Positions 1 to 45,224 of a stretch of 64,000 nt of DNA are shown here, in pieces. The notes beneath the pieces are model-generated. The model made no database searches. It was not told the origin of the DNA and saw only the letters and a program-made list of their open reading frames with translations. The stretch comes from an uncultured Armatimonadia bacterium (GTDB lineage: Bacteria > Armatimonadota > Zipacnadia > Zipacnadales > UBA11051). The translations under genes were made by a program, and so were the position numbers. The stretch's first letter is position 1; every line of letters begins with the position of its first letter. The DNA is taken from NCBI GenBank assembly GCA_964390495.1, contig CAYMIN010000009.1:6155-70154 (forward strand), in the 5' to 3' direction.

Positions 1-330
1 CGCAAGAGCCAATTCTTCATGAAAGATGAGATCGCGGTCAATGAGGATACGGTGCCGTACGCGGAGATGGTCCGGCGGGCGGCGGCTAAGCAACCTTTCC
101 TTGACACCGACCATACCCTGACCCATTTCCGCGAGCTGTGGAACTCCGACTTACTGCCCCTGACGGTTCCGGCGACCGCCGGCGGCATCGGCCAGGAGCA
201 GAAGATGCTGGATAGATGCGAAGAGCGCTGGCGGGCCAATGTCGAGAAATGGGTGCCGCCGGAGATTGACGAGGACAAGCTCAAGGCCCTGACGAAGCTG
301 CAGGAGCGGGCCGAAAAGGAGTTCCTGTAG
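1..330 (+). CDS. 5'-truncated CDS; C-terminal ~109 aa of an MttB-superfamily (trimethylamine/glycine-betaine:corrinoid) methyltransferase-like protein
   Basis: Frame 1 is open from window position 1 (RKSQFF upstream of the first Met). The tail ...RWRANVEKWVPPEIDEDKLKAL..ERAEKEF resembles C-termini of non-Pyl MttB/MtgB family proteins. Assignment by recollection of family C-termini only. Confidence 0.45.
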   Translation, partial: RKSQFFMKDEIAVNEDTVPYAEMVRRAAAKQPFLDTDHTLTHFRELWNSDLLPLTVPATAGGIGQEQKMLDRCEERWRANVEKWVPPEIDEDKLKALTKLQERAEKEFL

Positions 331-344
331 GCTCGGAGCTTAAC

Positions 345-1190
345 ATGGAGGTGATCGGACCGACCATGGAAACCGAGAAGCTGGAGGAGTATCAGGAGCT
401 GGCGACCAAGATCCGCGCCCACTGCCTGCACATGACCCATCGCGGCATGAGCGGGCACCTGGGCAGCATGTTGTCCATGGCCGACCTGCTGGCGGTGCTG
501 TACACCAGTATCCTGCAGGTGGACCCGCAGAACCCCGACTGGGACGAGCGCGACCGCTTCGTGCTCAGCAAGGGCCACGGTGGCGCGGCTGTCTATGCGG
601 TGCTGGCGGAGAAGGGCTTCTTCCCGATGGAGTGGCTGAATACCTACTACCTCGACGACGGCAAGCTGTCCGGCCACATCAGCCACCACGTCCCGGGGGT
701 GGAGTTCTCCACCGGATCGCTGGGCCATGGGCTGCCGGTGGCCGTCGGCATGGCACTGGCGGCGCGTAATGACGGCAAGCGGCATCGCATTTTTTGCCTG
801 ATGAGCGACGGAGACTGTAACGAGGGCTCGACCTGGGAGGCGCTGATGTTCGCCGCCCACCACCGGTTGGACAACCTCATAGTGATCGTGGACTACAATC
901 GCGTCCAGGCGCTGGGCAAGATGGAAAATGTCATCGAGATGGAGCCGTTTGCGCCCAAGCTGCATCTCTTCGGCTGGAGCGTGCGAGGCATTGACGGGCA
1001 TGATTACGAGGCTATCGAGACGACGCTGTCGGATCTGCCGTTCGAGCCGGGCAAGCCCTCATGGTTGCTGGCCAGCACCACCAAATGCAAGGGCATCAGT
1101 CGGCTGGAGAACACGGTCGGCAGTCACTACGGCTGTGTGAACGATGACGAACTGGCGGAGGCGCTGGCCGAATTGGGGGTGTCAGAATGA
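345..1190 (+). CDS. transketolase, N-terminal (TPP-binding) subunit of a split transketolase
   Basis: SKGHGGAAVYAVLAEKG and GSLGHGLPVAVGMA motifs. Stop overlaps the start of the next gene (ATGA). Confidence 0.85.
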   Translation: MEVIGPTMETEKLEEYQELATKIRAHCLHMTHRGMSGHLGSMLSMADLLAVLYTSILQVDPQNPDWDERDRFVLSKGHGGAAVYAVLAEKGFFPMEWLNTYYLDDGKLSGHISHHVPGVEFSTGSLGHGLPVAVGMALAARNDGKRHRIFCLMSDGDCNEGSTWEALMFAAHHRLDNLIVIVDYNRVQALGKMENVIEMEPFAPKLHLFGWSVRGIDGHDYEAIETTLSDLPFEPGKPSWLLASTTKCKGISRLENTVGSHYGCVNDDELAEALAELGVSE

Positions 1191-2113
1191 GAAGCGCATT
1201 CAACGAAGAGCTGCTCAAGATCGCCGCACAAGATGACCGCATCTACATGGTGCTGGCCGACATCGGCTATGGCGAGATCGAGCCGTTCGCGGAGGCCTTT
1301 CCCGACCGCTTCTACAACTGTGGGGTGGCCGAGCAGAACATGACCGGCGTCGCCTGCGGTCTGGCTATGGAAGGCAAGATCGCCATCACCTACTCGATCG
1401 CCAACTTCCCGACCCTGCGATGCCTGGAGCAGATTCGCAACGATGTCTGCTACCACGATCAGAACGTCAAGATCGTCATCATCGGCGGCGGACTGGCATA
1501 CGGCTCGCTGGGGGTGTCCCACCATTCCACCGAGGACATCGCCATCATGCGGTCGCTGCCGGACTGTGTGGTGGTGTGCCCGGCGGATATCCAAGAAGCC
1601 AGAGCCGCGACCCATGCCATGATCGAGCATCAGGGGGCCTTCTACTACCGCTGCGGCTATAAGAAGGAGCCCGACCTGCACCAAGGCCAGATTGATTTCC
1701 GCCTCGGCGAAGCGATCCAGGTCTCCGACGGCTCGGATGTTACGCTGATAGGGACCGGCACCGTGACCTACCGGGCCTGGCAGGCGGCGGAACTGCTGGC
1801 CGGCGAGGGCATCAAGGCCCGCGTAATCAGCATGCACACCGTCAAGCCGATAGACCGCGAGGCCATCGTTACCGCCGCCCGGCAGACCGGGGCAATCGTC
1901 ACCGTCGAGGAGCACAATATCTGCGGCGGTCTCGGCGGCGCAGTCGCTGAGGTCATCGCCGAGGCCGGAATCGGCATCCGCTTCAAGATGATTGCGCTGC
2001 CGGACCAGTATGTCCACATCGTCGGGACCCACGAATGGCTGCTGGACTACTACGGCTTCTCGCCCCAGGGCATCGCGAACATGGTGCAGGACTTGTTGGC
2101 GAGCGGAAACTAA
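1187..2113 (+). CDS. transketolase, C-terminal (pyrimidine-binding/C-terminal domain) subunit
   Basis: 4-bp overlap with the upstream subunit. Typical transketolase C-terminal half: FPDRFYNCGVAEQNMTGVA ... KPID. Confidence 0.85.
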   Translation: MRSAFNEELLKIAAQDDRIYMVLADIGYGEIEPFAEAFPDRFYNCGVAEQNMTGVACGLAMEGKIAITYSIANFPTLRCLEQIRNDVCYHDQNVKIVIIGGGLAYGSLGVSHHSTEDIAIMRSLPDCVVVCPADIQEARAATHAMIEHQGAFYYRCGYKKEPDLHQGQIDFRLGEAIQVSDGSDVTLIGTGTVTYRAWQAAELLAGEGIKARVISMHTVKPIDREAIVTAARQTGAIVTVEEHNICGGLGGAVAEVIAEAGIGIRFKMIALPDQYVHIVGTHEWLLDYYGFSPQGIANMVQDLLASGN

Positions 2114-2142
2114 TGGGTACTACATCCCAACGACCACATCCC

Positions 2143-2210
2143 CGACTGCCGCGTGGCTCGGGCTTCCAGCCCGAGGCCGTGCGCAGACGCTAGCGTCGGC
2201 GTGAGAGGAT
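2143..2210 (+). repeat. conserved ~67-nt leader element upstream of E1 alpha, related to the TTCCAGCCCGA repeat family
   Basis: Near-identical to 3206-3272 (actgccgcg..gggc.t.ccagcccgaggc.gtgcgcagacg...cgtcggc.tgagagga). Hairpin ctcgggc-ttcca-gcccgag. Palindrome GACGCTAGCGTC. Confidence 0.6.
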
Positions 2211-2224
2211 AATTCAAAGGAACC

Positions 2225-3196
2225 ATGAAACCGACTGAAGAGCAAATGAAAGCAATGCTGCGGACGATGCTAACCATCCGCGGCTTCGAGGCGACCGCCC
2301 GCGCGCTCTATACGGCTAACTGGGAGAGCGGCAACTTTTTGGGCGCGCTGCATTCTTACGAAGGCCAGGAGGCCGTCGCCACCGGCGCGTGCGCCTGCCT
2401 GAGGCAGGACGACTATGTCTTCAGCACCCATCGCGGCCACGGGCACTTCATCGCCAAGGGTGGGGACATCAAGGCAATGTTCGCCGAGCTACTCGGCAAG
2501 GAAGCCGGCTGCAGCCGCGGGCGCGGCGGCTCGATGCACATGTTCGACCCCGGAAAAGGTCTGATGGGCGGCAACGGCATTGTGGGCGGCGGGATTCCCC
2601 TGGCCCTCGGACCCGCCTTCGCCGCCAACTACCTAGGTAGTGACCAGGTCACCGTCACCTTCTTCGGTGACGGCGCCTCCAGCCAGGGCGTATTTCATGA
2701 GTCGTTCAACTTGGCGGCGCTCTGGGACCTGCCCTTGATCTTCGTCTGCGAGAACAACCGCTATGCCGTGGGTACGCCGGCCTCTCAAGGCATTTCGGTG
2801 CCTAACCTATCGGTTCGCGCCGCCGGCTACGGCTGCCCTGGAGTGACGGTGGATGGCGACGACCCGGTGGCCGTCTATGAGGCGGTCAGTGAGGCCATCG
2901 CCCACGCCCGCGCAGGTAACGGCCCCAGCCTCGTCGAGGCCGTGACCCACCGGCATAGCACACACTGTATGGTTATGCGCGAAACTCGCGAAGAGCCGGA
3001 ACTGGACAAAATGAAGGAGTATGACCCCATCCCCCGCTTCGAGCAGCGCCTGCAGGAAAGCGGCATCATCGGGGCCGACGAACTGACGCAACTCAAAGAG
3101 GAAGTGAGCCAACTCATCGAGGCGGCCGTGGCCTTCGCTGAAAACGCCGCCTTCCCTGATCCTGCGACGGTGGCCGATGGTCTGTGGGTAGGCTAG
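2225..3196 (+). CDS. 2-oxoacid (pyruvate/acetoin-type) dehydrogenase E1 component alpha subunit, TPP-dependent
   Basis: E1 alpha motifs HRGHGH, GGNGIVGGGIPLALG and FFGDGASSQG. AAAGGA RBS 4-9 nt upstream of the ATG. Confidence 0.85.
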   Translation: MKPTEEQMKAMLRTMLTIRGFEATARALYTANWESGNFLGALHSYEGQEAVATGACACLRQDDYVFSTHRGHGHFIAKGGDIKAMFAELLGKEAGCSRGRGGSMHMFDPGKGLMGGNGIVGGGIPLALGPAFAANYLGSDQVTVTFFGDGASSQGVFHESFNLAALWDLPLIFVCENNRYAVGTPASQGISVPNLSVRAAGYGCPGVTVDGDDPVAVYEAVSEAIAHARAGNGPSLVEAVTHRHSTHCMVMRETREEPELDKMKEYDPIPRFEQRLQESGIIGADELTQLKEEVSQLIEAAVAFAENAAFPDPATVADGLWVG

Positions 3197-3205
3197 GCGG
3201 GGCCC

Positions 3206-3272
3206 GAACTGCCGCGCACCCGGGCCTGCCAGCCCGAGGCAGTGCGCAGACGACATCGTCGGCATGAGAGGA
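3206..3272 (+). repeat. second copy of the conserved leader element, upstream of E1 beta
   Basis: Aligns to 2143-2210. Palindrome GACGA-CA-TCGTC carries compensatory changes relative to copy 1. Confidence 0.6.
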
Positions 3273-4259
3273 GAACTTAGAGCATTGGCAAAGACGCGAC
3301 AGGTTGTGTTCGCCCGAGCGCTCAATGAGGCGCTCCGTGAGGAGTTCGAGCGCGATGACAGCGTCTTCCTGGTCGGCGAGGAGGTCGGCGGGATCTTTGG
3401 TGTCACCAGGGGTCTGGACCGGCGCTTTGGTGAAAAGCGGGTGCGCTGCACCCCGATCTCGGAGGCGGCCTTCACCGGACTGGCCGTCGGCGCGGCGATG
3501 GTCGGCCTCCGGCCCATCGTCGAGATCATGTACCTCGACTTCGTCACCGTTTGCTGGGACCAGATCGCCAACCAGGCGGCCAAGCTGCGGTATATGTCCG
3601 GCGGCCAGATCAGCCTGCCCCTGGTAATTCGCGGCCAGCAGGGCAACCTCACCCGCGAGGCCGCCCAACATTCCCAACAGATCGAGGGCTGGTGCGCCCA
3701 AGTACCGGGGCTCAAGGTCGTGATGCCGGCCACCGTCGAGGACGCCAAGGGCCTCCTCAAGTCTGCCATTAGGGATGACAATCCGGTCATATTCGTCGAG
3801 CATCGCGGCCTCTATGACCTCAAGGGGCCTATGCCCAAAGGCGAGTACACCACCCCGCTCGGTGTGGCCAAGGTCCACCGCGAAGGCACCGATATCACCG
3901 TTGTCGCCACATCCCTAGCCTTGCAGAAGGCACTGGCAGCGGCGGAAGCCCTCGCCGATGAGATCAGCGTGGAGGTGGTGGACCCGCGCACACTGGTGCC
4001 GCTAGATACGGAGACGATTCTGCAATCGGTACGCAAGACCGGCCGGCTGCTGGTGGCTCACGACGCCCCGGTGCGGCTGGGCTTCGGAGCCGAAGTCGTG
4101 CGCGCGGTTACCGAAGAGGCCTTCGCAGCTCTGCAGACAGCACCTCGTGTAGTCGGCGGAACCAATCTGCCGATGCCGTATAGCTCGGTGCTGGAGGACG
4201 CTTGCATCCCCAGCGAAGATGACATCACACAAGCTATCCGACAGGTGGTGAAGAGTTAG
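3264..4259 (+). CDS. 2-oxoacid dehydrogenase E1 component beta subunit
   Basis: E1 beta / transketolase-like pyrimidine and C-terminal domains (ALNEAL.EE, FLVGEEVG ... ). Start ambiguous: ATG at 3264 or in-frame TTG at 3285, with GAGAGGAG RBS at ~3266-3273. The aminotransferase start abuts the stop codon. Confidence 0.8.
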   Translation: MRGELRALAKTRQVVFARALNEALREEFERDDSVFLVGEEVGGIFGVTRGLDRRFGEKRVRCTPISEAAFTGLAVGAAMVGLRPIVEIMYLDFVTVCWDQIANQAAKLRYMSGGQISLPLVIRGQQGNLTREAAQHSQQIEGWCAQVPGLKVVMPATVEDAKGLLKSAIRDDNPVIFVEHRGLYDLKGPMPKGEYTTPLGVAKVHREGTDITVVATSLALQKALAAAEALADEISVEVVDPRTLVPLDTETILQSVRKTGRLLVAHDAPVRLGFGAEVVRAVTEEAFAALQTAPRVVGGTNLPMPYSSVLEDACIPSEDDITQAIRQVVKS

Positions 4260-5618
4260 ATGAGAAGCCATGATGAGTTGGTGGAGGCGGCTCGCAAGCA
4301 CGTCTGGCTGCATTTCGCGCATTACGACGATATTGAGAAGCGGCCTAAGATCTTCGTGCGCGGCGAGGGGATGTATCTATGGGACGATGAGGGCAACAAG
4401 TACCTGGATACCTTCGCCTCGCTGCTGACTACTATCTGCGGCCATCACCGCCCCGAAGTGCATGAAGCGGTGCAGAAGCAGATGGAGCAGCTTGAGTTCT
4501 TCCCGAATTACCATGATTGCTACACCATCCCCTCCATCGAGCTGGCCGAGAAGTTGGCCGAGATCATGCCGGGCGACCTCTCTGTCGCTTTCTTCACGGG
4601 CGGCGGCTCGGAAGCCAACGAAAGCGCTATGAAGATGGCCCGCCAGTACTTCTGGGAGCAGGGCCAGCGCTCCCGCACCGGCATCCTGGCCAAACGTTTC
4701 AGCTACACCGGCGCTACTATGGGCACGATGTCGGCCACCGGTATCCCCTGGTTCTGGGAGACCTTCCAGCCGCGCATGCCCGGCTACGGCTTTTTCAACC
4801 CGGAATGGTACTACCATCGCGAGCTGGGCCTCGCTGAGGAGCAAGCCGGCAAGATCGCCCTGCAAGACCTGGAGGAACTCGTGGAGTTTGAGGGGCCGGA
4901 ATCTATTGCCGCCTTGATTATGGATCCGGTTTCCGGCTCCAACACCGGCTATTGGGTGCCCTCGGCCGCCTTCATGCAGGGCGTCCGCGAGCTATGTGAC
5001 AAACACGGCATCCTCTTGATCTTCGACGAAATCCAAGTCGGCTTCGGCAAGAGCGGCAAATGGTTCTGCTGCGAGCACTGGGACGTGGTGCCCGACATCA
5101 TGACCCTGGGCAAGGGCTTCTCCGGCGGCTATCTACCTCTCGCAGCGGCGGTAACCACCCAGAAGATCGCCGAGGTCTTCCGCAAGCCTGATGCGGAGTT
5201 CCGCCACGGCTTCACCTTCGGCGGCCATACCACCGCGTGCGCCGCAACTTTGGCCAATATCGAGATTATCGAGCGCGAAAACCTCGTGGACAGGGCCGCC
5301 GAGATGGGTACCTACCTGCGCGAAAAGCTGGAGGCGCTATACAAGTACCCCATCGTCGGCCACGTGCGCGGCATCGGCCTGCTGCTGGCCCTTGAGCTAC
5401 TCGAGGACCGCAAGACCTGGAAGAAGCTGGAGCCGGAAGGCGAGATCGGCGCCTGGGTGCGCGACCGCTGCTACGAGCTGGGCATGATCCTGCGCAACAA
5501 CGACGACATCTTGGTCTTTGCACCCTCCTTGACCATCACCAAAGACGAAGTTGACTACATGGTCGGCCTCACCGAGCAAGCGCTCGCAGAGGCGTGTGAG
5601 AAGTTCGGCAAAGGTTAG
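4260..5618 (+). CDS. class-III (omega-type) PLP-dependent aminotransferase
   Basis: LWDDEGNKYLD and FDEIQVGFGKSG motifs, with the PLP-lysine region (TLGKG). Confidence 0.8.
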   Translation: MRSHDELVEAARKHVWLHFAHYDDIEKRPKIFVRGEGMYLWDDEGNKYLDTFASLLTTICGHHRPEVHEAVQKQMEQLEFFPNYHDCYTIPSIELAEKLAEIMPGDLSVAFFTGGGSEANESAMKMARQYFWEQGQRSRTGILAKRFSYTGATMGTMSATGIPWFWETFQPRMPGYGFFNPEWYYHRELGLAEEQAGKIALQDLEELVEFEGPESIAALIMDPVSGSNTGYWVPSAAFMQGVRELCDKHGILLIFDEIQVGFGKSGKWFCCEHWDVVPDIMTLGKGFSGGYLPLAAAVTTQKIAEVFRKPDAEFRHGFTFGGHTTACAATLANIEIIERENLVDRAAEMGTYLREKLEALYKYPIVGHVRGIGLLLALELLEDRKTWKKLEPEGEIGAWVRDRCYELGMILRNNDDILVFAPSLTITKDEVDYMVGLTEQALAEACEKFGKG

Positions 5619-5625
5619 GGAGAAG

Positions 5626-6669
5626 ATGGCATACCCCACGGTTCTGCAGGACGTACAGACTTGCATTGACCTCGGCGTGCCCTCCCGGGTGCCGATTTTC
5701 CTCCTGGGTGAGGAGTTCGATGTCGAGCAGTATGATATTGACTATCGCACCTACATCACCAGCCCGGAGGATATGGTCAACTGCTGGGTGCAGGCCGTCG
5801 CGCGCTTCGACTATGACTGGATTCTGCTGCATCCCGACGACTACATCGAGTTCGAGCCGTTGGGCCTTGTGACGGCGGCAGATGAAAAGATCCCGCCATC
5901 GCCCATCGAGGAGTTGCCTGCAGATTACGACACTCTTAACAGCCTGGAAATACCCGATGCCCACAGCGCCGGGCGAATGCCGCATCATCTGGCCGGCCTG
6001 CAAGGCATCAAGGAGGCGATGGGCGACAGCATCTGCCTCGCGGGTCGCGTGGCGGCACCGTTCAGCTCGGTGTGCCTGCTTTACGGGGTGCAGGAAGCGC
6101 TGATGCTGATGATGACCGATCCGCAACTGTTCCGCGATACGGCCGAGTTCATGGCCGAATTGATGGTCTATTGGGCGCACGAGCAGATCAAGGCCGGCGC
6201 CGACGCCTTGTGGGTCGGGGATTGTGTGGCCTCATCGGGGTTCTTGTCGCCTGCGCACTACGAGGAGTTCGCCATGGCCGGAGCCGGCCGGGTCTGCGAT
6301 GCCATCAAAGACGCCGGCGCATGGGCGATCTACCACGGTGGCGAGCCCTCTCTGCCCCACCTCCAACTGGCGGCTCAGTTCCAGCCGAGTATGCTCAATG
6401 TGGGCGAAGACCTTGACCTGGCGGTCGCCAAACAAGCCCTAGGCGACCAAGTCTGTCTGTCCGGCAACCTCAACCCGATTCAGCTCTTCGAGGCCAAAGA
6501 CCTTGCACTGGTAGCAGAGGAGACGCTTCGAGTTATCGAGGCCGGCAAGCCGGGCGGCGGATATATCTTCAACAGCGGTGAGGGCGTGCCTCGGCAGACT
6601 GACCCCGAGATCATCGCCACGATGATGCAGGTGGCAAAGGAGCACTGCTGGTACGACCAGCAGGACTGA
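5626..6669 (+). CDS. uroporphyrinogen-decarboxylase (URO-D) family protein, MtaA/CmuA-like methylcobamide methyltransferase candidate
   Basis: URO-D fold signature spread over the length. Start placed at the ATG with an AGGGAGAAG RBS (MAYPTV...); the longer track ORF start is unlikely. Confidence 0.6.
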   Translation: MAYPTVLQDVQTCIDLGVPSRVPIFLLGEEFDVEQYDIDYRTYITSPEDMVNCWVQAVARFDYDWILLHPDDYIEFEPLGLVTAADEKIPPSPIEELPADYDTLNSLEIPDAHSAGRMPHHLAGLQGIKEAMGDSICLAGRVAAPFSSVCLLYGVQEALMLMMTDPQLFRDTAEFMAELMVYWAHEQIKAGADALWVGDCVASSGFLSPAHYEEFAMAGAGRVCDAIKDAGAWAIYHGGEPSLPHLQLAAQFQPSMLNVGEDLDLAVAKQALGDQVCLSGNLNPIQLFEAKDLALVAEETLRVIEAGKPGGGYIFNSGEGVPRQTDPEIIATMMQVAKEHCWYDQQD

Positions 6670-6674
6670 GTGAA

Positions 6675-7754
6675 ATGCAGCAGCACAAGGATACGCTAAA
6701 CTGCGCTGTCGTCGGCTATGGCCGCTATCACGACTTCGGGCGGATGCACTGCCGCTGGATCAGCGCCTGCCAGGAACTCAACCTGGTCGCCGTTTGTGAT
6801 ATGGACCCACAGGCCCGCCAACGCGCCGGCGGCGATTTTCCCGATGCGCGCCTTTATGCTTCGGTCGCTGAGATGCTCGCCGATGACGACATTGACATGG
6901 TCAGCGTCGTCACTCCCCATTTCACCCATACCGAAATCGCCACCGACTGCTTGCGGGCCGGCAAGCATGTAATCGTCGAAAAAGCGATGGCTACTAGCGT
7001 AGCCGACTGTACGGCCATGATTGAGGCCGCCGAGCGCGCCGGCCGCAAGCTGGCGGTATTTCACAATCGGCGCCATGACGGCAACTACCGCGCCATTCAG
7101 CGAGTAATCGCCGATGGCACCATCGGTGAGGTGTTCCACGTCGAGTGCTCGGAGGAAAGCTACACCGAGCCGCAGCAGTGGTGGTATTCCGAGCCCGACA
7201 AGTCCGGCGGGGCGCTGTTCTACTGGGGCCCTCATGCGGTGGACTGGGTGCTACACCTGGTGCCGTCGAGGGTGGCCCGGGTCGTCGGCGCCACCCAGAG
7301 GCGCGTCTGGTCACACGTGGACATCGCCGACGAGGTGCGCGCCTATCTCTGGTTTGAGAACGACGCGACCGCCACTATCACCTTCTCCCGCATCGCCGCC
7401 ATCCGCAAGCCTTTGTGGCGGATACTGGGCACCAAGGGTGGCATCGAGGATTCCAAGGTCGGCGTCTGCGAGGGCAACTACATCCCCCATTACCAGGAGC
7501 TGCTGGTGGGCGATGCCGGTGAAGGCCAGATCCGTGTGGTGACTGTGGATGGCGAGGAGAAAAGCGAGACTCTGGTTGACTATCTGGCCTCGGATTGGCT
7601 GACGTATTACCAGGACATGGCCGCCGCGGTCTTGCGCGATCAGCCGCTCCCGGTCACGGGAGAAGAGGGACGCATGACGGTGGCGGTCATGGCTGCGGCG
7701 CAGGAGTCGGGCGACCAAGGCGGAGTCATCATCGAGATGAGTGACTATGAGTGA
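6675..7754 (+). CDS. Gfo/Idh/MocA family NAD(P)-dependent oxidoreductase
   Basis: N-terminal Rossmann VVGYGR..., conserved EKPMA-like motif (VEKAMA), and a C-terminal alpha/beta domain. Confidence 0.8.
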   Translation: MQQHKDTLNCAVVGYGRYHDFGRMHCRWISACQELNLVAVCDMDPQARQRAGGDFPDARLYASVAEMLADDDIDMVSVVTPHFTHTEIATDCLRAGKHVIVEKAMATSVADCTAMIEAAERAGRKLAVFHNRRHDGNYRAIQRVIADGTIGEVFHVECSEESYTEPQQWWYSEPDKSGGALFYWGPHAVDWVLHLVPSRVARVVGATQRRVWSHVDIADEVRAYLWFENDATATITFSRIAAIRKPLWRILGTKGGIEDSKVGVCEGNYIPHYQELLVGDAGEGQIRVVTVDGEEKSETLVDYLASDWLTYYQDMAAAVLRDQPLPVTGEEGRMTVAVMAAAQESGDQGGVIIEMSDYE

Positions 7755-8034
7755 CAGCGCCGACGATGTTACGGTGCTGATCCCGGAGCCGCTGCGGGTC
7801 TACACCAACGGACACGCGCAGGTGAGCGTGCCGGCCGGCACCGTCGGTGAGGTGCTGTACCAGCTTGTCACCCGCTACCAGGAGATCGGGGCGCAGATAA
7901 TTGACGAAGCCGGCGTTCTGCGACATGGCGTGACAGTTGCAGTCAACGGCCAGGACATCCGCTTCGTCGGGCACCTCCAAGCTCCCGTGCGGCCCGGCGA
8001 GCAACTCCAGATCGTGGTGACGATGCTGGTCTAG
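7747..8034 (+). CDS. MoaD/CysO/ThiS-like beta-grasp protein lacking the C-terminal Gly-Gly
   Basis: The whole length aligns to long-form MoaD/CysO proteins (VTV.IP..LR.YT.G...V.V...TV.EVL..L...Y..., VAVNG.DIRF). It ends ...QIVVTMLV* instead of ...GG*. The start overlaps the upstream stop. Confidence 0.5.
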   Translation: MSDSADDVTVLIPEPLRVYTNGHAQVSVPAGTVGEVLYQLVTRYQEIGAQIIDEAGVLRHGVTVAVNGQDIRFVGHLQAPVRPGEQLQIVVTMLV

Positions 8035-8101
8035 GAAACAATTCGTGCTCCCCCGCGTCGAAATAGATAGAAATTCGACATCGAGACACGGAGACGACCG
8101 G

Positions 8102-9253
8102 ATGCGTGTAAGGCGCCTCATCATAGCGATATGGGTATTGGTATTGCTTTTCAGTGCCACCGCGGTGCTGGCCAGGCAGTGGTCTGAGCAGCGCGAGCAG
8201 GCCGTCGGTGCCGAAGTTGCCGAGCAGATCGAGAAGCAGTACAAGCTCTGGGAGGACGAGGCGAGCCAGAAGCAGGTCGAGGAAATCCTAGCCGAATTGG
8301 TGCCACACACCGACCGCCCGGATGTTGAGTATCTGGTGAAACTGCTGGACAGTGATGAGGTCAATGCCTGCAGCATACCCGGCGGCCGCATCTACGTGCA
8401 CCGAGGACTGATCGAGGAAGTCGAGTCCGTTGACGAGCTGGCCGCGGTAATGGCCCACGAGATTGCCCACAACTGCACTTATGACGCCATGGACCAGGCC
8501 GAGCGCAACCAGAAGCTATTCATCGGCGGGATCACGGCGGCGCTGGTGGCGATATTCGTCGGAGCCGACAGTAGCGAAATATCCGGCGTTCTGGCCGCCG
8601 GCTCGTATGTGCGCCAGGGGATTCTCAGCCGGTATTCCATTGACATGGAGCAGCGCGCTGACCTCAACGCCATCCGCTATCTGGCGGCTAGCAAGTACAA
8701 CCCCACCGGCCTGCTGACCTTTATGGAGCGGCTGCTGGCCCAGACCTACAAGACGGCGCGCCCCGACTACGGGATCTATGAGACCCACCCCCAGGCCACG
8801 GAGCGCTGCGCATATATCATCCAGGCCATCTATGACGCGGGGTTCGACATCAATCGGCGTGCGGTAACTAAGTGGGACCCGCCCAGCTTTGAGAGCATCG
8901 GCCCTGAAGAAACGCAGATAGACCGCCAAACAGCGCCGGCCAAGATATCACTGTGGGGCGAAGAGCTGGTCACCCTATACTATGCCGGCGAATATCCGGG
9001 CATTGACAAGCGCGCCGAGGCCATCTGCAAGCACCTCACGGAAGCGCTCGCGGCGGGCCTGGTGCTGTACCAGATAGACACTGCTGAGACTGACGGAACC
9101 TCTACGATCACGCTGCGGGGTCAGCCGATGATGAAAATCTATCCCGAGGACGTGCAATCAGAAGCAAGCTCACCCCAGGCTGTGGCCGACGGCATCGTCA
9201 GGGCGCTGGCCAGAGCCATGCACCGGGAGGAGCTGGCGCGGCGGTATCACTAG
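8102..9253 (+). CDS. membrane-anchored M48-family zinc metallopeptidase
   Basis: HEIAHN (HEXXH) and a downstream ETHPqatER motif. N-terminal hydrophobic anchor. GGAG RBS. Stop is immediately followed by the start of the lipoyl protein. Confidence 0.75.
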   Translation: MRVRRLIIAIWVLVLLFSATAVLARQWSEQREQAVGAEVAEQIEKQYKLWEDEASQKQVEEILAELVPHTDRPDVEYLVKLLDSDEVNACSIPGGRIYVHRGLIEEVESVDELAAVMAHEIAHNCTYDAMDQAERNQKLFIGGITAALVAIFVGADSSEISGVLAAGSYVRQGILSRYSIDMEQRADLNAIRYLAASKYNPTGLLTFMERLLAQTYKTARPDYGIYETHPQATERCAYIIQAIYDAGFDINRRAVTKWDPPSFESIGPEETQIDRQTAPAKISLWGEELVTLYYAGEYPGIDKRAEAICKHLTEALAAGLVLYQIDTAETDGTSTITLRGQPMMKIYPEDVQSEASSPQAVADGIVRALARAMHREELARRYH

Positions 9254-9760
9254 ATGGGCCAGCGCATCACCATCGAGAAGTGGGCCGAGAACCTCGAAGA
9301 AGTCACCCTTGCCCGCTGGCTGAAGGCCGAGGGCGACCACATCGTTGCCGGCGAAGTGCTGTGCGAGATCATCACCGATAAGGCCACCTTCGAGTACACC
9401 GCTGAGCAAGCCGGCACAATCGTCAGGATCTACGCCGCCGAGCGCAGTACCGTACCCGTCGGCTATATCATAGCCTTCCTCGCCACTGCCGGCGAGCAGC
9501 CGGACCCCGACATCGAGACCCACAATGAGAAGCTGCTTGCCGATAACCAACAGCAGGCGCAACTGGACCTCGACGATATTCTCTCAGCCGCCGGTGGAAA
9601 ACCTGCTCGACCGCGCGCAACCGCGGCCGCACGACGGCTGGCGCGCCAACTTCAGATTGACCTGCAGCAGGTCGCCGACTGGCTCAGTCCGCCCACCGAA
9701 CTGATTACCGAAGACCACGTGCAAGCATACTTGAGCGACAAAGGGAGCAGCGGTGATTGA
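9254..9760 (+). CDS. stand-alone lipoyl-attachment domain + peripheral-subunit (E3/E1) binding domain protein; E2 without a catalytic acyltransferase domain
   Basis: Lipoyl-lysine motif [11 protein letters not shown]. Ala/Pro-rich linker, then a PSBD-like segment [19 protein letters not shown]. Only 168 aa, with no CAT-like catalytic core (no DHRxxDG). Confidence 0.75.
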
Positions 9761-10499
9761 CCTAAGCGGCAAAGTGGCGCTGGTGACGGGTGGCTCGCGA
9801 GGCTTGGGCCGGGCCATCGCGGTACAGCTCGCCGAAGCCGGCGCGGAGGTTGCGGTCAATTACCTGCAGAACGCCGCAGCGGCTGAAGAGACCGGTCGCC
9901 TCATCACCGAATACGGACGCCGCTGCATTCTCTGCCAGGCGGACGTGAGCGACCGCGAGGCCGTCAAGGCGATGGTCGAGCAGGTTTCCCAGGAATTGGG
10001 CGGGCCGGATATCCTAGTCAACAACGCCGGCATCATCAGCGACCAGTTCCTCGCCTTCATGAAGCCGGAGCAGTGGGAGAGCGTCATTGCCACCTCCCTG
10101 ACCGGCGCCTTCAACTGCTGCCAGGCGGCCATGCGGCCGATGCTGAAAAAGCGCTGGGGTCGCATCGTCAATATCGCCTCTGATGCCGGCTTGATGGGCG
10201 ACTTGCGGCGCACCAACTACGCCGCCGCCAAGGGTGGTTTGATCGCCTTCACTAAGGCGCTGGCGCGTGAGGTTGTCGCCCAGGGCATTGTCGTCAATGC
10301 GGTGGCGCCGGGTGTCATCGAGACCGACCTGATCGCTGAGATGACCGACAAGCAGCGCGAGCAGATGTGCCAATTGATCCCAGCCGGTCGGTTCGGGCGG
10401 CCTGAAGAGGTCGCTCCCCTCGTGGCATTTCTGTGCTCGCAGCATGCCAATTACATCACCGGCCAGGTCCTCAGCGTTGACGGCGGCCTCCGCATGTAG
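9753..10499 (+). CDS. fabG: 3-oxoacyl-[ACP] reductase-like short-chain dehydrogenase (FabG family)
   Basis: GTG start with a [20 protein letters not shown] and NNAG motifs, YAAAK catalytic YxxxK. 8-bp overlap with the upstream gene. Confidence 0.8.
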
Positions 10500-10526
10500 C
10501 GCCTGAATCGGCTGTAATTCCCCGAC

Positions 10527-10555
10527 TTGCAAAGCCCACCTGAATCGTTTATATT
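10527..10555 (+). promoter_or_regulatory. sigma-70-like promoter candidate (TTGCAA-17 bp-TATATT) for the DUF47-pitA-fabF-KS-like-E1alpha transcript
   Basis: Hexamers read directly, with 17-nt spacing, inside the 213-bp gap upstream of the DUF47 gene. Confidence 0.45.
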
Positions 10556-10712
10556 GTGGGCGCGGATAGAAGTAATTCACCTCTACGATGGGATCGGATG
10601 CGTTACCGTAAACGTACATTCCCACGTACCGACCTGCCACTAGGCCTACCGCCACTTGCTATTGCTCCACTGTCACTTGCATCCAGCGACCTCAAGGGAA
10701 GGGACGGATATC

Positions 10713-11378
10713 ATGCCGGGGCGGAACCGTTTTCTTGACGGCCTGCAGCGGGTCATGCGTGCCTTCGCGCCGAGCGAAGAGAACTTCTTTGAGCTGTTCG
10801 AGGCTCTGGGCGACAAGGCCCTGGCGGCCGCCGAGTGCCTCGACGATGTCATGCAGAGGTTCCACCGTTTGCCGCTAGCTGTAGAGAGAATCGAGGACAT
10901 CGAGCACGAGGCCGACGAGATCGTCCACGAGGTAGTCAGGCGGCTCAACACCACCTTCGTCACCCCCGCCTTGTTCGACCGCGAGGACATCTACCGCGTT
11001 GCCGAACGCCTCGACGACATCATTGACCAAACCAAAGGCGCCATTGACCGCCTACAGCTTTTCAAGATTGAGAAGCCCACCGACAGGTGCAAAGAGCTGG
11101 TGAAAATCTTCGTGCAAGCGGCAGAGTGTCTGCAGAGCAACATGCACAACCTGGCCGGGCTCAAACCCACAGACTGCGAATACGTTGCCGAGGTCAACAC
11201 TCTGGAGAACCAGGCTGATGTGGTCAACCGGGCGGCCATGAGCGAGCTGTTCCAGTACGAAGGCGACCCCCGTCAGATCATGAAATGGCTGCAGATTTAC
11301 CAATTCATCGAAGAGGCGATTGATAGCTGCGAGGCGGCAGTCAATTTCGTCGAGGCAGTGGTGGTGAAGAATGCCTGA
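10713..11378 (+). CDS. DUF47 family protein (PhoU-like putative phosphate-transport regulator)
   Basis: Helical PhoU-like sequence. Conserved pairing with, and 8-bp overlap of, the downstream PiT transporter. Confidence 0.7.
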   Translation: MPGRNRFLDGLQRVMRAFAPSEENFFELFEALGDKALAAAECLDDVMQRFHRLPLAVERIEDIEHEADEIVHEVVRRLNTTFVTPALFDREDIYRVAERLDDIIDQTKGAIDRLQLFKIEKPTDRCKELVKIFVQAAECLQSNMHNLAGLKPTDCEYVAEVNTLENQADVVNRAAMSELFQYEGDPRQIMKWLQIYQFIEEAIDSCEAAVNFVEAVVVKNA

Positions 11379-12405
11379 CCTGCCGATCTGGGTCTGGGTG
11401 ACCGTCGCGGTGGCCCTGACCTTCGACTTCATGAACGGATTTCACGATACGGCCAACGCGATTGCCACTTCCGTGCTTACCCGGGCCTTGAGTATCCGTC
11501 AGGCGATTGTGTTCGCATCAGGCCTCAATTTCCTGGGTGCGGTGGTAAGCGTCAGGGTCGCCGCAACCATTGGCAAGGGCATCGTGGACCCGGCCGATAC
11601 CTCGCATACGGTAGTGCTGGCCGCTTTGCTCGGGGGCATTACTTGGCTGCTCATCACCTGGTATCTGGGCTTGCCGACGAGTTGCTCTCACGCTCTCGTT
11701 GGCGGAGTGATTGGAGCTGTACTGGCTGACCATACGACCCTTCAGGCCGGTGGCGGCATGCTGGGCTGGGGTGTTAACTACGGTGTGCTACAATACGCGG
11801 GGCTGACCAAGATATTCGTGTCTCTGCTACTGTCCCCGATATTCGGTGTGATCGTCGGTGTCGCGCTGATGATTACTCTGTTGCACATCTTCGGCCACTG
11901 CGCCCCGGCGGCGCTCAACCGCCATTTCAAGCGTTTCCAGATCATGTCCGCAGGCTTTATGGCCTTCAGCCACGGCTCCAACGACGCCCAGCAAGTCATG
12001 GGCATCATCACTCTTACACTGGTTGCGAGCGGAGCTCTAGGCACCTTTATAGTCCCCTTCTGGGTCAAGGTGTGCTCGGCCACTGCTATGGCTCTGGGCA
12101 CGGCCGCCGGCGGCTGGCGGATCATTAAAACAGTCGGCCGCAAGGTGATGGAACTGAAGCCGATCCACGGTTTTGCCGCCGAGACGGCTGCAGCCTCAGT
12201 CATCCAGTTCGCGACGCACTTCGGCGCTCCGGTCAGCACCACTCACGTCATCTCCACCGCCATAATGGGCGTGGGCCTATCTCACCGACTCACGGCGGTG
12301 AGATGGGGCGTAGTGGGGCAGATCGTCGGCGCTTGGATACTGACGCTCCCGATGTCTATGTTCTTCGGCGCGCTGGCTCACTGGATAATCCACAACTGGC
12401 TGTAA
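11371..12405 (+). CDS. pitA: PiT-family inorganic anion (phosphate/sulfate) transporter
   Basis: N-terminal FDFMNGFHDTANAIATSV and a repeated C-terminal GSNDAQ-type motif. Confidence 0.85.
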   Translation: MPDLPIWVWVTVAVALTFDFMNGFHDTANAIATSVLTRALSIRQAIVFASGLNFLGAVVSVRVAATIGKGIVDPADTSHTVVLAALLGGITWLLITWYLGLPTSCSHALVGGVIGAVLADHTTLQAGGGMLGWGVNYGVLQYAGLTKIFVSLLLSPIFGVIVGVALMITLLHIFGHCAPAALNRHFKRFQIMSAGFMAFSHGSNDAQQVMGIITLTLVASGALGTFIVPFWVKVCSATAMALGTAAGGWRIIKTVGRKVMELKPIHGFAAETAAASVIQFATHFGAPVSTTHVISTAIMGVGLSHRLTAVRWGVVGQIVGAWILTLPMSMFFGALAHWIIHNWL

Positions 12406-12428
12406 ACTCCGCACACAGGCGATGAGCG

Positions 12429-13655
12429 ATGCAGGCCAGGCTGTACCATGTTGCCATAACCGGGCTCGGGGTCGTCAGCCCTTTGGGCAGCGGCGCCAGT
12501 ACCCTCTGGGAGGGTTTGCTGGCCGGCTGTCGCGGTCTCACTAGCCTGACCAAATTCGACCCCACCGGCCTGCGCAACCAGAAGGCCGGCCAGGTTAATG
12601 ACTGGCAATTCGACCCCGCTGAATATGGCCTCCAGCAAGCGCCTGACGAGGCCACCCAGTTTCTGCTCGCTGCGGCGCACGAGGCGGTCGCCGATGCCGG
12701 TCTCGATGACCGTTTGCACCCAGGCGCGGAGCCTGTCGCGCAGGCAGGGGCAGTGCTGGGGACCAACTTCGGCGGCGCTGCTTCGTGGGAGAGCTACATC
12801 AACGGAGTACTGGTCGGCCGGCCCTCACCCACGGCTTTCGAGCAATTTAGCTTCCACGAGGCGCTATCCCTGCTATCCAGCAGCTTCGCCCTCAGTGGCC
12901 CCTGCAGCCAGCTCTCCATGGCCTGCGCCTCCGGAACTGCCGCTATCGGCTACGGAGCCGAGCTGATACGAACCGGCCAGGCCGAGCTGGTGCTGGTCGG
13001 CGGCTACGATGCCCTGGCTCCCAGTATTCTCAGCGGGCTAAGCCTACTCCGCACCATGACCGATGACGACCTCTATCCGTTTTCGGCCAACCGCAGTGGG
13101 ACCCTTTTCGGTGAGGGCGCGGGCGTGCTGGTGCTGGAGAACCTGCAGCGCGCCCACCAACGCCGCGTGCGCTGCTACGGCGAAGTCTTGGGGGCGTGGC
13201 AGAACAACAATGCTTACCACCTGACCGCCCCCGATGCCGGCGGTGCCGGTATGGCACGAGCCTTGCGGGGAGCGCTGCAGGTAGCGGGAATTGCCCCTGA
13301 GGACCTGGATCACATCAACGCCCACGGCACCGGGACAGAGTACCACGATGTGGCCGAGACCGAGGCGATCAAGGCCGTCCTCGGCCCGGCCGCTTACGAC
13401 ATAACCGTGGTGTCCATAAAGGGGGCTATCTCGCATCTGATGGGGGCAGCCGGGGCCGTCGAGGGTGTTGTGACAGCTCTAGCGCTCTTCCATCAGATGG
13501 TGCCGCCTACCACCAATTACGGCGATCCGGACCCGGCCTGTGACCTGGACTACGTTACCACCGGCGCGCGCCGCCAGCCTATCAAACACGCGGCCTCGCT
13601 CTCAGCCGGCATCGGCGGCGATAACGCGTGTGTGGTCCTGGGCCGGCTTATCTAG
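12429..13655 (+). CDS. fabF: beta-ketoacyl-[ACP] synthase II-like condensing enzyme (intact Cys-His-His triad)
   Basis: Active-site Cys in SMACASGTA, HGTGT present (INAHGTGTEYHD), and second His in SIKGAISHLMGAAG. Confidence 0.85.
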   Translation: MQARLYHVAITGLGVVSPLGSGASTLWEGLLAGCRGLTSLTKFDPTGLRNQKAGQVNDWQFDPAEYGLQQAPDEATQFLLAAAHEAVADAGLDDRLHPGAEPVAQAGAVLGTNFGGAASWESYINGVLVGRPSPTAFEQFSFHEALSLLSSSFALSGPCSQLSMACASGTAAIGYGAELIRTGQAELVLVGGYDALAPSILSGLSLLRTMTDDDLYPFSANRSGTLFGEGAGVLVLENLQRAHQRRVRCYGEVLGAWQNNNAYHLTAPDAGGAGMARALRGALQVAGIAPEDLDHINAHGTGTEYHDVAETEAIKAVLGPAAYDITVVSIKGAISHLMGAAGAVEGVVTALALFHQMVPPTTNYGDPDPACDLDYVTTGARRQPIKHAASLSAGIGGDNACVVLGRLI

Positions 13656-13659
13656 CAAC

Positions 13660-13766
13660 GCGTAGCTCGGCCTGCCCTGAGCTTGTCGAAGGACAGGTGA
13701 GAACGCGGTTCACCGCGTTCTCAGCTTCCAGCTCGAGGTCATTGCCGTGATTACACTGTGCCATTT
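13660..13766. repeat. long copy of a dispersed intergenic repeat element with two hairpins
   Basis: Aligns to 43974-44077 over ~105 nt, roughly 80% identical by eye. Hairpins cctgccc..ggacagg and gagaacgcgg-ttca-ccgcgttctc. Confidence 0.7.
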
Positions 13767-13794
13767 CACTCGGGGATAATCCAGACTACAGACT

Positions 13795-14799
13795 GTGAAA
13801 AACGCATCGTCTCAAAACCAGCGCATAGTCATCAGCGGAGCCGCACCGATTGCCTCCGTCGGCATCGGGCGCGAGGACTTCTTAGAGGGCCTGCGCGAAA
13901 ACCGCGCGGGCCTCGGCGCCTCGCAACGCCTGACTGATGCCGGCGGCTTCGCACAGGTGGCGGAGTGCCGCGACTTTGTGGTCGAGGACTATCTGGAGAG
14001 CAAGAAGACCTACCTCGACCGCTGCTCGGAGCTGGCGCTGGCGGCTGCGGCCCTGGCCTTCGCGGACGCCGGACTGGTCTGGTCGGAACTGGATGGCGAG
14101 CGGATCGGCCTATGCCTGGGCACCGCCTACGGCTGTCTCGAATCCATGACCAATCACACAGCGCGGGTGCAGGCCAAGGGCTTGCGTTTCGGCTCGCCGA
14201 TGATCTTCACCCACACAATGCCCAACTCACCCACGGCGCTGGTGGCCATCGAGTACGGTATCCACGGGCCGGCTGGGACCTTTTGCGCCGGCAGCATAGC
14301 GGCGGCCTGTGCGCTGGAGTTCGCCCTGCGCCGCCTCAAGAGCGGAGATGCCGACTTTGTACTGGCCGGCGGCTGTGAGGCACTGAGTGTCGCGCTGCTT
14401 GGCGGCCTGGGCGGCCCCGAGCGACTCGGGCCGGATTTCGTACCGGGTGAGGGCGCCTGCCTATTCGTCCTGGAGCGCATGCACACGGCAGCGGCCAGAG
14501 GTGCTGAGATGCTAGCCGAGATCGCCGCTGTCGGTCTGGCGGTGGCTACCGAAGCCAATCCCGACGCCGCTCTGGACGCCGCGTGCGCGCAAGCCGCTCT
14601 GACCGACAGGCCCGCGATATTCGCCCCGCCCGCCGCATACGGCCACACCTTCGGCACCTCAGTGGCTCTGGACATTTGTGCGGCACTCGGTAGTTTGAAA
14701 TCGGATGCGAGCTGCGATTGCATCGCCATAACCGGCCGCAGCGGCCTTACCGGCACTCATGCGCCGGCCGCTGCTGTCATCATCCGGAGCCTAACATGA
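13795..14799 (+). CDS. degenerate ketosynthase-like protein (KS partner/CLF-like); retains GHxxG His region but lacks the HGTGT motif
   Basis: KS N-terminal RIVISGAAPIASVGIG. Possible Cys in GPAGTFCAGS. No HGTGT, with ~25 residues missing before AAYGHTFGTS. 334 aa versus 408 aa for the FabF-like neighbour. Stop overlaps the start of the E1 alpha paralog. Confidence 0.65.
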   Translation: MKNASSQNQRIVISGAAPIASVGIGREDFLEGLRENRAGLGASQRLTDAGGFAQVAECRDFVVEDYLESKKTYLDRCSELALAAAALAFADAGLVWSELDGERIGLCLGTAYGCLESMTNHTARVQAKGLRFGSPMIFTHTMPNSPTALVAIEYGIHGPAGTFCAGSIAAACALEFALRRLKSGDADFVLAGGCEALSVALLGGLGGPERLGPDFVPGEGACLFVLERMHTAAARGAEMLAEIAAVGLAVATEANPDAALDAACAQAALTDRPAIFAPPAAYGHTFGTSVALDICAALGSLKSDASCDCIAITGRSGLTGTHAPAAAVIIRSLT

Positions 14800-42749: not shown

Positions 42750-42925
42750 TAAGCGCAACGCCGGTAGGCACCTTCGTACTGGCGGAGGCGTTCAGCTTCG
42801 ACGGTTTATTTCCCCACGCAGGAGGAATCCCTGTCTTGGTATCGAAGCTAGCCTAAGCACGCGGCCAGTCACAGTGGCCCGTGCTCAGTACCCAAACGTG
42901 TCGCTTTATTCGTAGGAGGTCGCAA

Positions 42926-43954: not shown

Positions 43955-43973
43955 GCCCGAAGTACCCACCAGC

Positions 43974-44077
43974 GCGTAGCTCGGCCTGCCCCGAGCCTGT
44001 CGAAGGGCAGGTGAGAATGCGTCAGCATTCTCAGCTTCCAGCCCGAGGCCGTTGGGGTGACCACAGTGCGCCGTTTT
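43974..44077. repeat. second long copy of the intergenic repeat element
   Basis: Aligns to 13660-13766. Hairpins cctgccc..gggcagg (perfect) and gagaatgc-gtca-gcattctc, with compensatory substitutions relative to copy 1. Confidence 0.7.
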
Positions 44078-44181
44078 GCTCGCGTTCGCAAAAGCCCACG
44101 GCATCACTGTCAGCATGTTAGCAGAATCTACCTAGCTTCAGTCGGAAACCTGACCGACGCGACAAGAATAAGGAGGCAGTC

Positions 44182-45207: not shown

Positions 45208-45224
45208 GGCCGGCGCACAGCCAC

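Follow-up and report, generated by a model that had tools for sequence, protein, structure and literature searches.

A conserved gene cluster linking an MttB-like protein and a URO-D-fold protein with thiamine diphosphate enzymes and an omega-transaminase in Armatimonadota and other bacteria

Introduction

The closest described relatives of the gene studied here encode the non-pyrrolysine (non-Pyl) quaternary-amine methyltransferases MtgB, MtpB, MtcB, MtyB and MthB. These are TIM-barrel proteins of family PF06253 with about 490 amino acids (aa), no in-frame UAG codon and an aromatic-rich region at the substrate pocket, and they are accompanied by a corrinoid protein, a second methyltransferase (MT2) and a RamA/RamQ activase. 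Here we describe an MttB-like gene, whose product shares the family, length, predicted fold and aromatic-rich region of this group, on contig CAYMIN010000009.1 of an uncultured Armatimonadia bacterium (GenBank assembly GCA_964390495.1). The window is the whole stretch of DNA that was analysed, 64,000 nucleotides at positions 6,155 to 70,154 of the forward strand of this contig. Unlike the genes of the MtgB group, the window-type gene is embedded among genes for a transaminase, thiamine diphosphate (ThDP) enzymes and sugar uptake, and no corrinoid protein, pterin-type MT2 or activase was detected near it in 61 loci.

We found that this association is real, widely conserved and unexplained. Its conserved core consists of an MttB-superfamily TIM-barrel protein, a class III omega-transaminase, a URO-D/MtaA-fold protein, an NAD(P) oxidoreductase (Gfo/Idh/MocA or SDR) and one or two heterodimeric ThDP enzymes, namely a split transketolase and/or an E1 alpha/beta pair of the pyruvate dehydrogenase (PDH)/acetoin type. 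Literature searches found no paper that describes this gene cluster, and these genes go unmentioned in the Zipacnadia paper. We tentatively favor a reading in which this conserved set of genes is a catabolic cassette that breaks down an amine-bearing, carbohydrate-like compound, and in which both TIM-barrel proteins have taken on non-canonical roles.

Two further systems come close to parts of the cluster. The trimethylamine (TMA) system of methanogens, formed by Pyl-containing MttB, MttC and MtbA or MtaA, likewise pairs an MttB-fold with a URO-D/MtaA-fold protein. The cluster differs from it in having no MttC and in its bacterial hosts, which offer no coenzyme M (CoM) context, as well as in the Pyl and zinc-site substitutions given below. 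MtgBCD of aerobic marine bacteria (Ruegeria pomeroyi) shows that MttB-superfamily enzymes also occur outside strict anaerobes and classical methylotrophy (PMC12478193). That system needs the cobalamin-binding protein MtgC and the methyltransferase MtgD, which are reported to be co-located with glycine-betaine genes (PMC12478193); neither was found here. By the naming used in MAGICdb the first gene of the cluster would be 'MtxB', with its substrate unassigned (PMC10653893).

Results and Discussion

Gene order of the cluster

The window opens inside the MttB-like gene. To read the gene in full, 9.6 kb of upstream DNA was taken from ENA contig ERZ27256770:k141_884206 (175 kb; locus L001), identified by an exact protein match. 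This contig agrees with the window without mismatch over 11,190 nt; window position 1 is position 9657 of L001. The MttB-like gene is a complete open reading frame (ORF) of 492 aa with no in-frame stop (L001:8508-9986), and it starts 1,149 nt upstream of the window. Genes were called from the ORF listing and Pfam profile scans of the window proteins, and the run reads as follows.

1-330, + strand: MttB-superfamily gene, last 109 codons (PF06253; whole gene of 492 aa read on the identical contig)
345-1190, + strand: split transketolase, N-terminal (ThDP/PP-domain) subunit (PF00456, Transketolase_N, 159 bits)
1187-2113, + strand: split transketolase, C-terminal (Pyr and C-domain) subunit (PF02779 and PF02780)
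2255-3196, + strand: E1 alpha of a PDH/acetoin-type ThDP enzyme (PF00676, 280 bits; longest ORF from 2225)
3285-4259, + strand: E1 beta (PF02779 and PF02780; longest ORF from 3264)
4260-5618, + strand: class III (omega-amine) aminotransferase (PF00202, 330 bits)
5626-6669, + strand: URO-D-fold protein, 'type A' (PF01208, 174 bits)
6675-7754, + strand: Gfo/Idh/MocA NAD(P) oxidoreductase (PF01408, PF22725, PF02894)
7747-8034, + strand: ThiS/MoaD/SAMP-like small beta-grasp protein (PF02597, 31 bits)
8102-9253, + strand: M48 peptidase (PF01435, 93.6 bits)
9254-9760, + strand: protein with a lipoyl domain and an E3-binding domain (PF00364, 49 bits; PF02817, 19 bits)
9753-10499, + strand: SDR (FabG-like) oxidoreductase, the final gene of the co-directional run (PF13561, 225 bits)

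All of these genes lie on the + strand. From the MttB-like to the URO-D gene the intergenic gaps are -4 to 141 nt; the two transketolase subunit genes overlap by 4 nt, and the ThiS-like gene runs into the end of the Gfo gene. The original prediction, made from positions 1-6669, had described an operon-like run with a split transketolase, E1 alpha/beta and an omega-aminotransferase between an MttB-superfamily fragment and a URO-D-family gene. Pfam profiles recovered each of these genes where it had placed them, the linkage is conserved in related loci, and the run in fact extends past 6669 to 10499. We read positions 1-10499 together with 1.15 kb upstream as a single co-directional 12-gene operon. 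A promoter and terminator scan returned sites no more numerous than in shuffled sequence and was therefore uninformative on the limits of the operon.

Conservation across phyla

Related loci were collected by a scan for orthologues of the MttB-like protein with one genome per species, which yielded 61 loci, and the ORFs of these loci were searched with the window proteins and with the B12 domain of Escherichia coli MetH. The closest loci belong to Ca. Zipacnadia/Armatimonadia (86-60% identity). The other hosts are Latescibacterota, Planctomycetota, Acidobacteriota, Spirochaetes, Omnitrophota, Ratteibacteria, Eubacteriales and Gemmatimonadota, so that nine named phylum-level groups are represented, besides unclassified metagenome-assembled genomes (MAGs), and the MttB-like protein is at least 48% identical across the nine groups.

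We took as informative the 44 loci with at least 5 kb of flanking DNA on one side. The transaminase gene was present within 10 kb, and often directly adjoining, in 29 of them, E1 alpha in 27, E1 beta in 24, the URO-D protein in 19 and the split transketolase in 18. At least one of transaminase, E1 and transketolase stood beside the MttB-like gene in 39 of the 44, and the partner genes were absent from the other 5. Where the flanks reached at least 8 kb in both directions (15 loci), the counts were 13 for the transaminase, 11 for E1, 10 for URO-D and 9 for the transketolase. L012 and L013 show all 12 genes in the order of the window, and L014-L017 have the transketolase genes between E1 alpha and E1 beta. 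Because the gene order varies, the conservation points to selection on linkage rather than to descent from one ancestral layout. Such an association goes far beyond chance, and the conserved linkage makes it very likely that the MttB-like protein, the URO-D-like protein, the ThDP enzymes and the omega-transaminase act in a shared pathway.

Orthologues of the Gfo gene, or other Gfo genes, recur in the related loci, and SDR genes lie within the cluster in those of Planctomycetota and Spirochaetes. Recurrent neighbors include ROK regulators (12 loci), parts of ABC sugar transporters, SSF transporters, further Gfo genes and a class IV aminotransferase, as well as Polysacc_deac_1, Cyclase, Amidohydro_2, BNR_2, sulfatase/SGSH_C and AP_endonuc_2 genes. 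Single loci add more: L006 has GH20, SIS, Dak1/2 and a glycyl-radical enzyme, L007 has GH172, GH32/43 and SSF, and L008 has SSF and a lipoyl protein. The ThiS-like, M48, HpcH and AGE genes do not qualify as members of the core, since only close Armatimonadota relatives retain them.

The MttB-like protein

The fragment encoded at 1-330 had been assigned to the MttB superfamily in the original prediction, and this assignment held. On its own the fragment scored 19.1 bits against PF06253 (E = 3.7e-4, profile positions 403-497 of 500), which is below the gathering score of 25 bits; the full-length protein scored 79.3 bits (E = 2e-22), which is above it. With TIGR02369, the model for the TMA methyltransferase MttB proper, the score was 98.6 bits against a cut-off of 525. 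The best solved relative by sequence was MtgB at 38 bits. An AlphaFold2 (AF2) model computed with 69 homologues had a predicted local distance difference test (pLDDT) score of 93.4, and Foldseek matched it to 9yce (MtgB) and 2qne with E = 2e-21 and template modeling (TM) scores of 0.75-0.77 (0.75 for MtgB), and also to 4yyc. The TM score to MttB (7xcl) was 0.73. The model thus superposes on MtgB, MttB and the Sinorhizobium meliloti homologue at TM 0.73-0.77 with 16-19% sequence identity (18% to MtgB and to MttB), and the following matches were to MtmB at TM below 0.4. Judged by sequence and predicted fold, the protein is a divergent member of the MttB superfamily.

In a profile alignment, F327 of the MttB-like protein falls opposite Pyl334 of MttB (X in 7xcl). 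Three substrate-site residues of MtgB are replaced, R312 by W322, H348 by Y360 and F356 by G369 (PMC13080624), and the region of MtgB Y97 does not align. An arginine at the R312 position is conserved in all non-Pyl members of known function (PMC13080624). The substrate-site set of the characterized non-Pyl members comprises R312 and the cation-pi aromatics Y97 and F356; of these, the two that align, R312 and F356, are lacking. Since MttB carries a Tyr at the R312 position, the loss of the arginine argues against an acidic quaternary amine as substrate, not against methyl transfer as such.

Within the clade, D108, H237 and R282 are invariant in 69 sequences, and C109, C210, H320 and E324 are found in at least 90% of them. 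In the predicted structure these seven residues and Y360 are located at or beside beta-strands. According to the profile alignment H237, H320 and E324 are not common to MttB or MtgB. The conserved polar residues of the clade may hint at acid/base or metal chemistry.

More than 120 homologues with at least 53% identity were found, all of them from metagenomes or MAGs. An exhaustive search of 1.8 billion cluster representatives gave few 50%-identity clusters close to the MttB-like protein, which indicates a compact clade; beyond these the relatives form a continuum at 23-40% identity. Three distant relatives (30-36% identity) adjoin GH2, GH36, BNR, M14 peptidase and sulfatase genes and no corrinoid proteins. 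In L036 a second, very divergent MttB-family paralogue (L036:8570-10033; 23 bits to the window protein) comes right after the transaminase gene, in a cluster that also holds the orthologous MttB-like gene.

The URO-D-like protein

Membership of the product of 5626-6669 in the URO-D family was confirmed by the PF01208 score listed above. The original prediction had further called it a methylcorrinoid methyltransferase, and here the results point the other way. It scored 86.7 bits against TIGR01463 (MtaA/CmuA; cut-off 235.4), 76.6 against NF041608 (MtbA; 600), 70.8 against NF040654 (MtaA; 400) and 83.3 against TIGR01464 (HemE; 303), in each case far below the cut-off. The AF2 model (pLDDT 94.5) superposes best on MtaA 4ay8, with TM 0.88 and a root mean square deviation of 2.1 Å. 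The zinc motif LHICG of MtaA reads YHGGE in the window protein: the histidine of the H-x-C motif is kept, and Gly occupies the position of the cysteine. This histidine, H237 of the URO-D-like protein, is invariant in 56 homologues.

HemE shares with the URO-D-like protein the PF01208 fold (TM 0.83-0.86) and one aligned aspartate. D71 aligns with the Asp of the FSD motif of E. coli HemE, which we take to be the catalytic Asp, and it is the only HemE feature tested that is kept. The protein differs from E. coli HemE in that RQAGR is deleted and FNLGHG has become FNSGEG (His to Glu), and in that its gene is located in a carbohydrate/amine operon, not in a haem operon. The FNSGEG region presumably corresponds to that of the distal zinc-ligand Cys of MtaA. 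From its sequence features and predicted fold, the protein belongs to the URO-D superfamily and is neither HemE nor MtaA, which gives a second, uncharacterized branch of the URO-D fold. Taken together, the MttB-like and the URO-D-like protein lack the tested defining features of MttB proper, the non-Pyl methyltransferases, MtaA/MtbA and HemE. The proposal that they form the two catalytic halves of a demethylation system thus stands as far as superfamily and fold are concerned, and is not supported at the level of the active sites, where neither Pyl nor the conserved Arg is found in one and the zinc-site Cys is missing in the other.

URO-D type A homologues (43-57% identity) were also found without any MttB-like gene, so the pairing of the two is not obligate. 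The related loci also hold a second URO-D type with H-x-D-G-N at the MtaA zinc site. In L038, L052, L053, L064 and others, this second or a third URO-D subfamily replaces or joins the window type beside the MttB-like gene, and in L052 both types are present.

Search for corrinoid machinery

It had been suggested in the original prediction that a corrinoid protein might lie upstream, and that a lack of any such protein nearby would speak against the proposed methyltransferase system. The Pfam lists contain no corrinoid protein in the 9.6 kb upstream or in the 64-kb window, about 74 kb of contig in total, which is the outcome that had been named as counter-evidence, and no activase upstream; a RamA-type activase, a pterin-binding methyltransferase, or a second MttB or URO-D gene were likewise not found in the window.

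The related loci, with about 20 kb inspected per genome, gave the same picture. The B12 domain of E. coli MetH, which was the sole positive control for B12-domain detection, gave no phmmer match in the 61 loci. A regular expression, DxHxxG..SxL..GG, which is positive on MetH, matched 14 times, and all 14 matches were rejected because they fell on antisense ORFs or in other families. In a Pfam census of 224 unassigned neighboring ORFs of 130-480 aa, no B12-binding, pterin-binding or activase family (PF02310, PF02607, PF00809, RACo) was among the families with at least two members. Rfam searches found no cobalamin riboswitch in the window and no Rfam family in seven related loci (150 kb).

ThDP enzymes, transaminase and oxidoreductases

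A two-subunit transketolase serves as the C-C cleaving step of dedicated sugar catabolic operons in the sulfo-TK pathway (SqwGH) and in the apulose-4-phosphate transketolase AptAB. Neither pathway is known to include a transaminase, an E1 alpha/beta pair, or an MttB-like or URO-D-like protein. The window transketolase resembles them, by description, in being two-subunit with intact catalytic residues. Among solved structures its N-terminal subunit comes closest to the split-chain transketolase 6yak (235 bits), and the equivalents of H26, H66, H100, D155, N185, H261, E411 and H473 of E. coli TktA are kept in 19 of 19 orthologous subunit pairs. Of the phosphate-site residues, R520 has a retained equivalent, but R358 and S385 lie in a terminal gap of the alignment; Gly takes the place of H461.

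The E1 is heterodimeric, like that of AcoAB-AcoC and of PDH. E1 alpha scored 352 bits against TIGR03182 (PDH E1 alpha), just under the cut-off of 394, and its best match in the Protein Data Bank (PDB) was PDH E1 alpha (210 bits); E1 beta scored 372 bits against NF006667. The cluster differs from the AcoAB-AcoC type in that its lipoyl protein has no catalytic domain, that no E3 is in the cluster, and that a lipoyl gene occurs in few of the loci. The lipoyl protein has 168 aa with a TDKA motif and an E3-binding (PSBD) domain and lacks the 2-oxoacid_dh catalytic domain, and its best NCBIfam match is acetoin dehydrogenase E2. Neither an E2 acyltransferase domain nor E3 was found in the 64-kb window in the Pfam lists. 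Other lipoyl proteins occur in L008/L049, L012, L013 and L040. A free-standing lipoyl carrier that serves E1 as acyl or electron acceptor is possible.

In an Armatimonadota MAG (GCA_013178155.1; L006:17770-19929), a 719-aa PFL-like glycyl-radical enzyme is encoded directly after E1 alpha and 6 kb from the MttB-like gene; the E1 beta gene is found near Dak1/Dak2, 6 kb away in the opposite direction.

The nearest solved relative of the transaminase is the class III aminotransferase 6io1 (356 bits), followed by amine, putrescine and polyamine:pyruvate transaminases. From these relatives, its substrate is likely a primary amine other than an alpha-amino acid. The Gfo/Idh/MocA gene gave weak matches to models of inositol, glycoside-3 and levoglucosan dehydrogenases. 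The ThiS-like and M48 genes are kept as a pair only in the close relatives L012 and L013, and they could be a small-protein tagging or processing pair.

Proposed pathway and alternative explanations

We infer that the nutrient may be, for instance, an amino sugar, an aminopolyol or an N-substituted derivative of these, and the order of the steps is likewise a suggestion. The compound would be taken up by the neighboring ABC or SSF transporters under the control of a ROK regulator and, where needed, N-deacylated by the products of the neighboring CE4, cyclase or amidohydrolase genes. One or two preparatory steps on the ammonium-bearing substrate would then fall to the MttB-like and URO-D-like proteins, after which the transaminase would take off the amino group to leave an alpha-hydroxy-ketone or keto-sugar. 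ThDP-dependent C-C cleavage by the transketolase and E1 would follow, with E1 passing the acyl unit to the lipoyl carrier, and the oxidoreductase would set the redox state. The two TIM-barrel proteins would work without a dedicated corrinoid carrier and may use acid/base or metal catalysis, or direct group transfer. That the route feeds 2-oxo and sugar-phosphate intermediates, as first proposed, is plausible. Sulfoquinovose (via sulfo-TK), apiose, kanosamine, choline/ethanolamine, serinol and phosphonates were considered as substrates, and cobamide remodeling as a role, and all were dropped because none fits the whole gene set.

Several points weigh against a catabolic cassette with non-canonical TIM-barrel proteins, and some of them also favor a corrinoid system of the canonical kind with its carrier gene elsewhere in the genome. 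No characterized pathway fits this gene set, and the role that we assign to the two TIM-barrel proteins is a placeholder. In a corrinoid system, the MttB-like protein would be the first methyltransferase (MT1) acting on a non-acidic N-methyl or quaternary amine and the URO-D-like protein MT2 or a second MT1, and the demethylated amine would then be transaminated and cleaved by the ThDP enzymes. The folds match the two halves of the methanogen methylamine systems (MttB with MtbA/MtaA), and MttB-like and URO-D-fold genes stand together in about half of the informative loci. They do so in L038 and L064 (short contigs) with no transaminase or ThDP gene seen. The aromatic-rich pocket formed by W322, F326, F327 and Y360 could hold a cationic nitrogen, and MttB, as said, has Tyr at the R312 position. 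All MttB-superfamily proteins characterized to date are methyltransferases that depend on a corrinoid (PMC13080624, PMC12155760, PMC12478193). A shared carrier encoded elsewhere has precedent in Eubacterium limosum, where one MtqC is methylated by the three MT1s MtpB, MtcB and MtyB (PMC12155760). Corrinoid chemistry is feasible in the host, as its closest relatives are Armatimonadota that live anaerobically in sediment and have partial Wood-Ljungdahl pathways (PMC10290634). The reach of our search counts here too, given the roughly 20 kb seen per genome, the size range of the census ORFs and MetH as the one B12 control. Even so, the 61 loci and 74 kb of contig yielded neither a corrinoid protein nor an activase or pterin-binding MT2, and the window and seven loci yielded no cobalamin riboswitch. 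The URO-D-like protein, which also occurs without an MttB-like gene, has no MtaA zinc-ligand Cys and scores far under the MtaA/CmuA cut-off, and the characterized bacterial methylcorrinoid:tetrahydrofolate MT2s (MtgA, MtqA, MthA) are pterin-binding proteins and are not known to have the URO-D fold. A single MT1 cannot convert a trimethylammonium group to the primary amine needed by the transaminase. The cluster is also found in MAGs of Pirellulaceae and Acidobacteriota, which are largely aerobic. We regard a corrinoid system with a remote carrier as rather unlikely, and as the main rival nonetheless.

A biosynthetic role, in the making of an amino sugar, an aminocyclitol or an unusual lipid or cell-envelope component, has some appeal because Gfo/Idh/MocA, transaminase and transketolase proteins act together in the route from kanosamine to 4-amino-3,4-dideoxy-D-arabino-heptulosonate 7-phosphate (aminoDAHP) in 3-amino-5-hydroxybenzoate (AHBA)-type pathways, and because an SDR gene, two ketoacyl-synthase (KAS) genes and a further E1 alpha gene lie downstream at 9753-15776. 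However, conservation of the core does not extend to the KAS genes, the transaminase is of the class III omega-amine type and not of the DegT/AHBA-synthase type, and the uptake systems, ROK regulators, glycoside hydrolases, deacetylases and sulfatases that recur around the cluster are typical of catabolic loci, all of which makes biosynthesis improbable. It could also be argued that the MttB-like and URO-D-like genes are unrelated passengers beside a ThDP/transaminase operon, given that the promoter and terminator scans define no operon, that type A URO-D genes occur in other contexts and that partner genes are missing from five of the informative loci. Such a chance adjacency is strongly disfavored and very improbable, since the same partners recur at 39 of 44 loci in nine named phylum-level groups with varying gene orders, including transketolase genes set between E1 alpha and E1 beta in L014-L017, and since the window genes share one strand with the short gaps given above. 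Gene content, the family and fold membership of the proteins, cross-phylum synteny and the lack of a co-located corrinoid protein are what we observed. It is quite possible, if still somewhat doubtful, that the MttB-like clade and the non-canonical URO-D-fold proteins have been recruited to carbohydrate/amine catabolism with no corrinoid carrier.

Other genes in and around the window

Upstream of the MttB-like gene, L001 holds a divergent HpcH/HpaI aldolase gene, three AGE-family genes and genes for a Tricorn/PD40 protein and a PKD protein. The AGE-family (GlcNAc 2-epimerase-like) paralogues beside the cluster number three at L001:1-7523 and five at L013:810-9004; together with the divergent aldolase they were seen in Armatimonadota loci only. 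Downstream of the co-directional run, the window contains a KAS I/II-like gene at 12429-13655 and a second ketoacyl-synthase-like gene at 13795-14799. A third E1_dh alpha-type ThDP gene (265 bits) follows at 14718-15776, with no adjoining E1 beta partner. Three aldo/keto reductase paralogues are arranged in tandem at 42881-46356. At 40529-41197 on the - strand there is a gene for a protein with a prepilin-type N_methyl domain and an SBP_bac_10 (DUF1559) domain, and five further copies occur near related loci; this domain pairing is typical of Planctomycetota and related glycan degraders. The remaining genes of the window are housekeeping and envelope genes by precomputed Pfam matches and our own scan. 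ARAGORN found no tRNA gene in the 64-kb window, and no Rfam family reached the gathering threshold there.

Significance

There is a substantial chance, although below an even one, that the cluster reveals a new function for the MttB fold. If so, the MttB superfamily would gain its first example of non-corrinoid or free-cofactor chemistry, within a pathway not yet described: an omega-transaminase would deaminate an amine-bearing, sugar-like compound, and two ThDP enzymes would cut it. Metagenome surveys commonly use MttB-family genes to mark methylamine or quaternary-amine demethylation, for example in predictions of methane precursors or TMA turnover, and such genes are filed as 'MtxB' in PMC10653893. 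If the proteins of this clade are not corrinoid methyltransferases, the clade and its distant relatives beside glycosidase genes would be misread by that marker rule. If they are methyltransferases, abundant heterotrophs of sediment and soil (Zipacnadia, Planctomycetota, Acidobacteriota) would link a methylated amine substrate to sugar metabolism. In both cases, the cluster offers about ten concrete genes, and two well-predicted proteins, for expression and assay.

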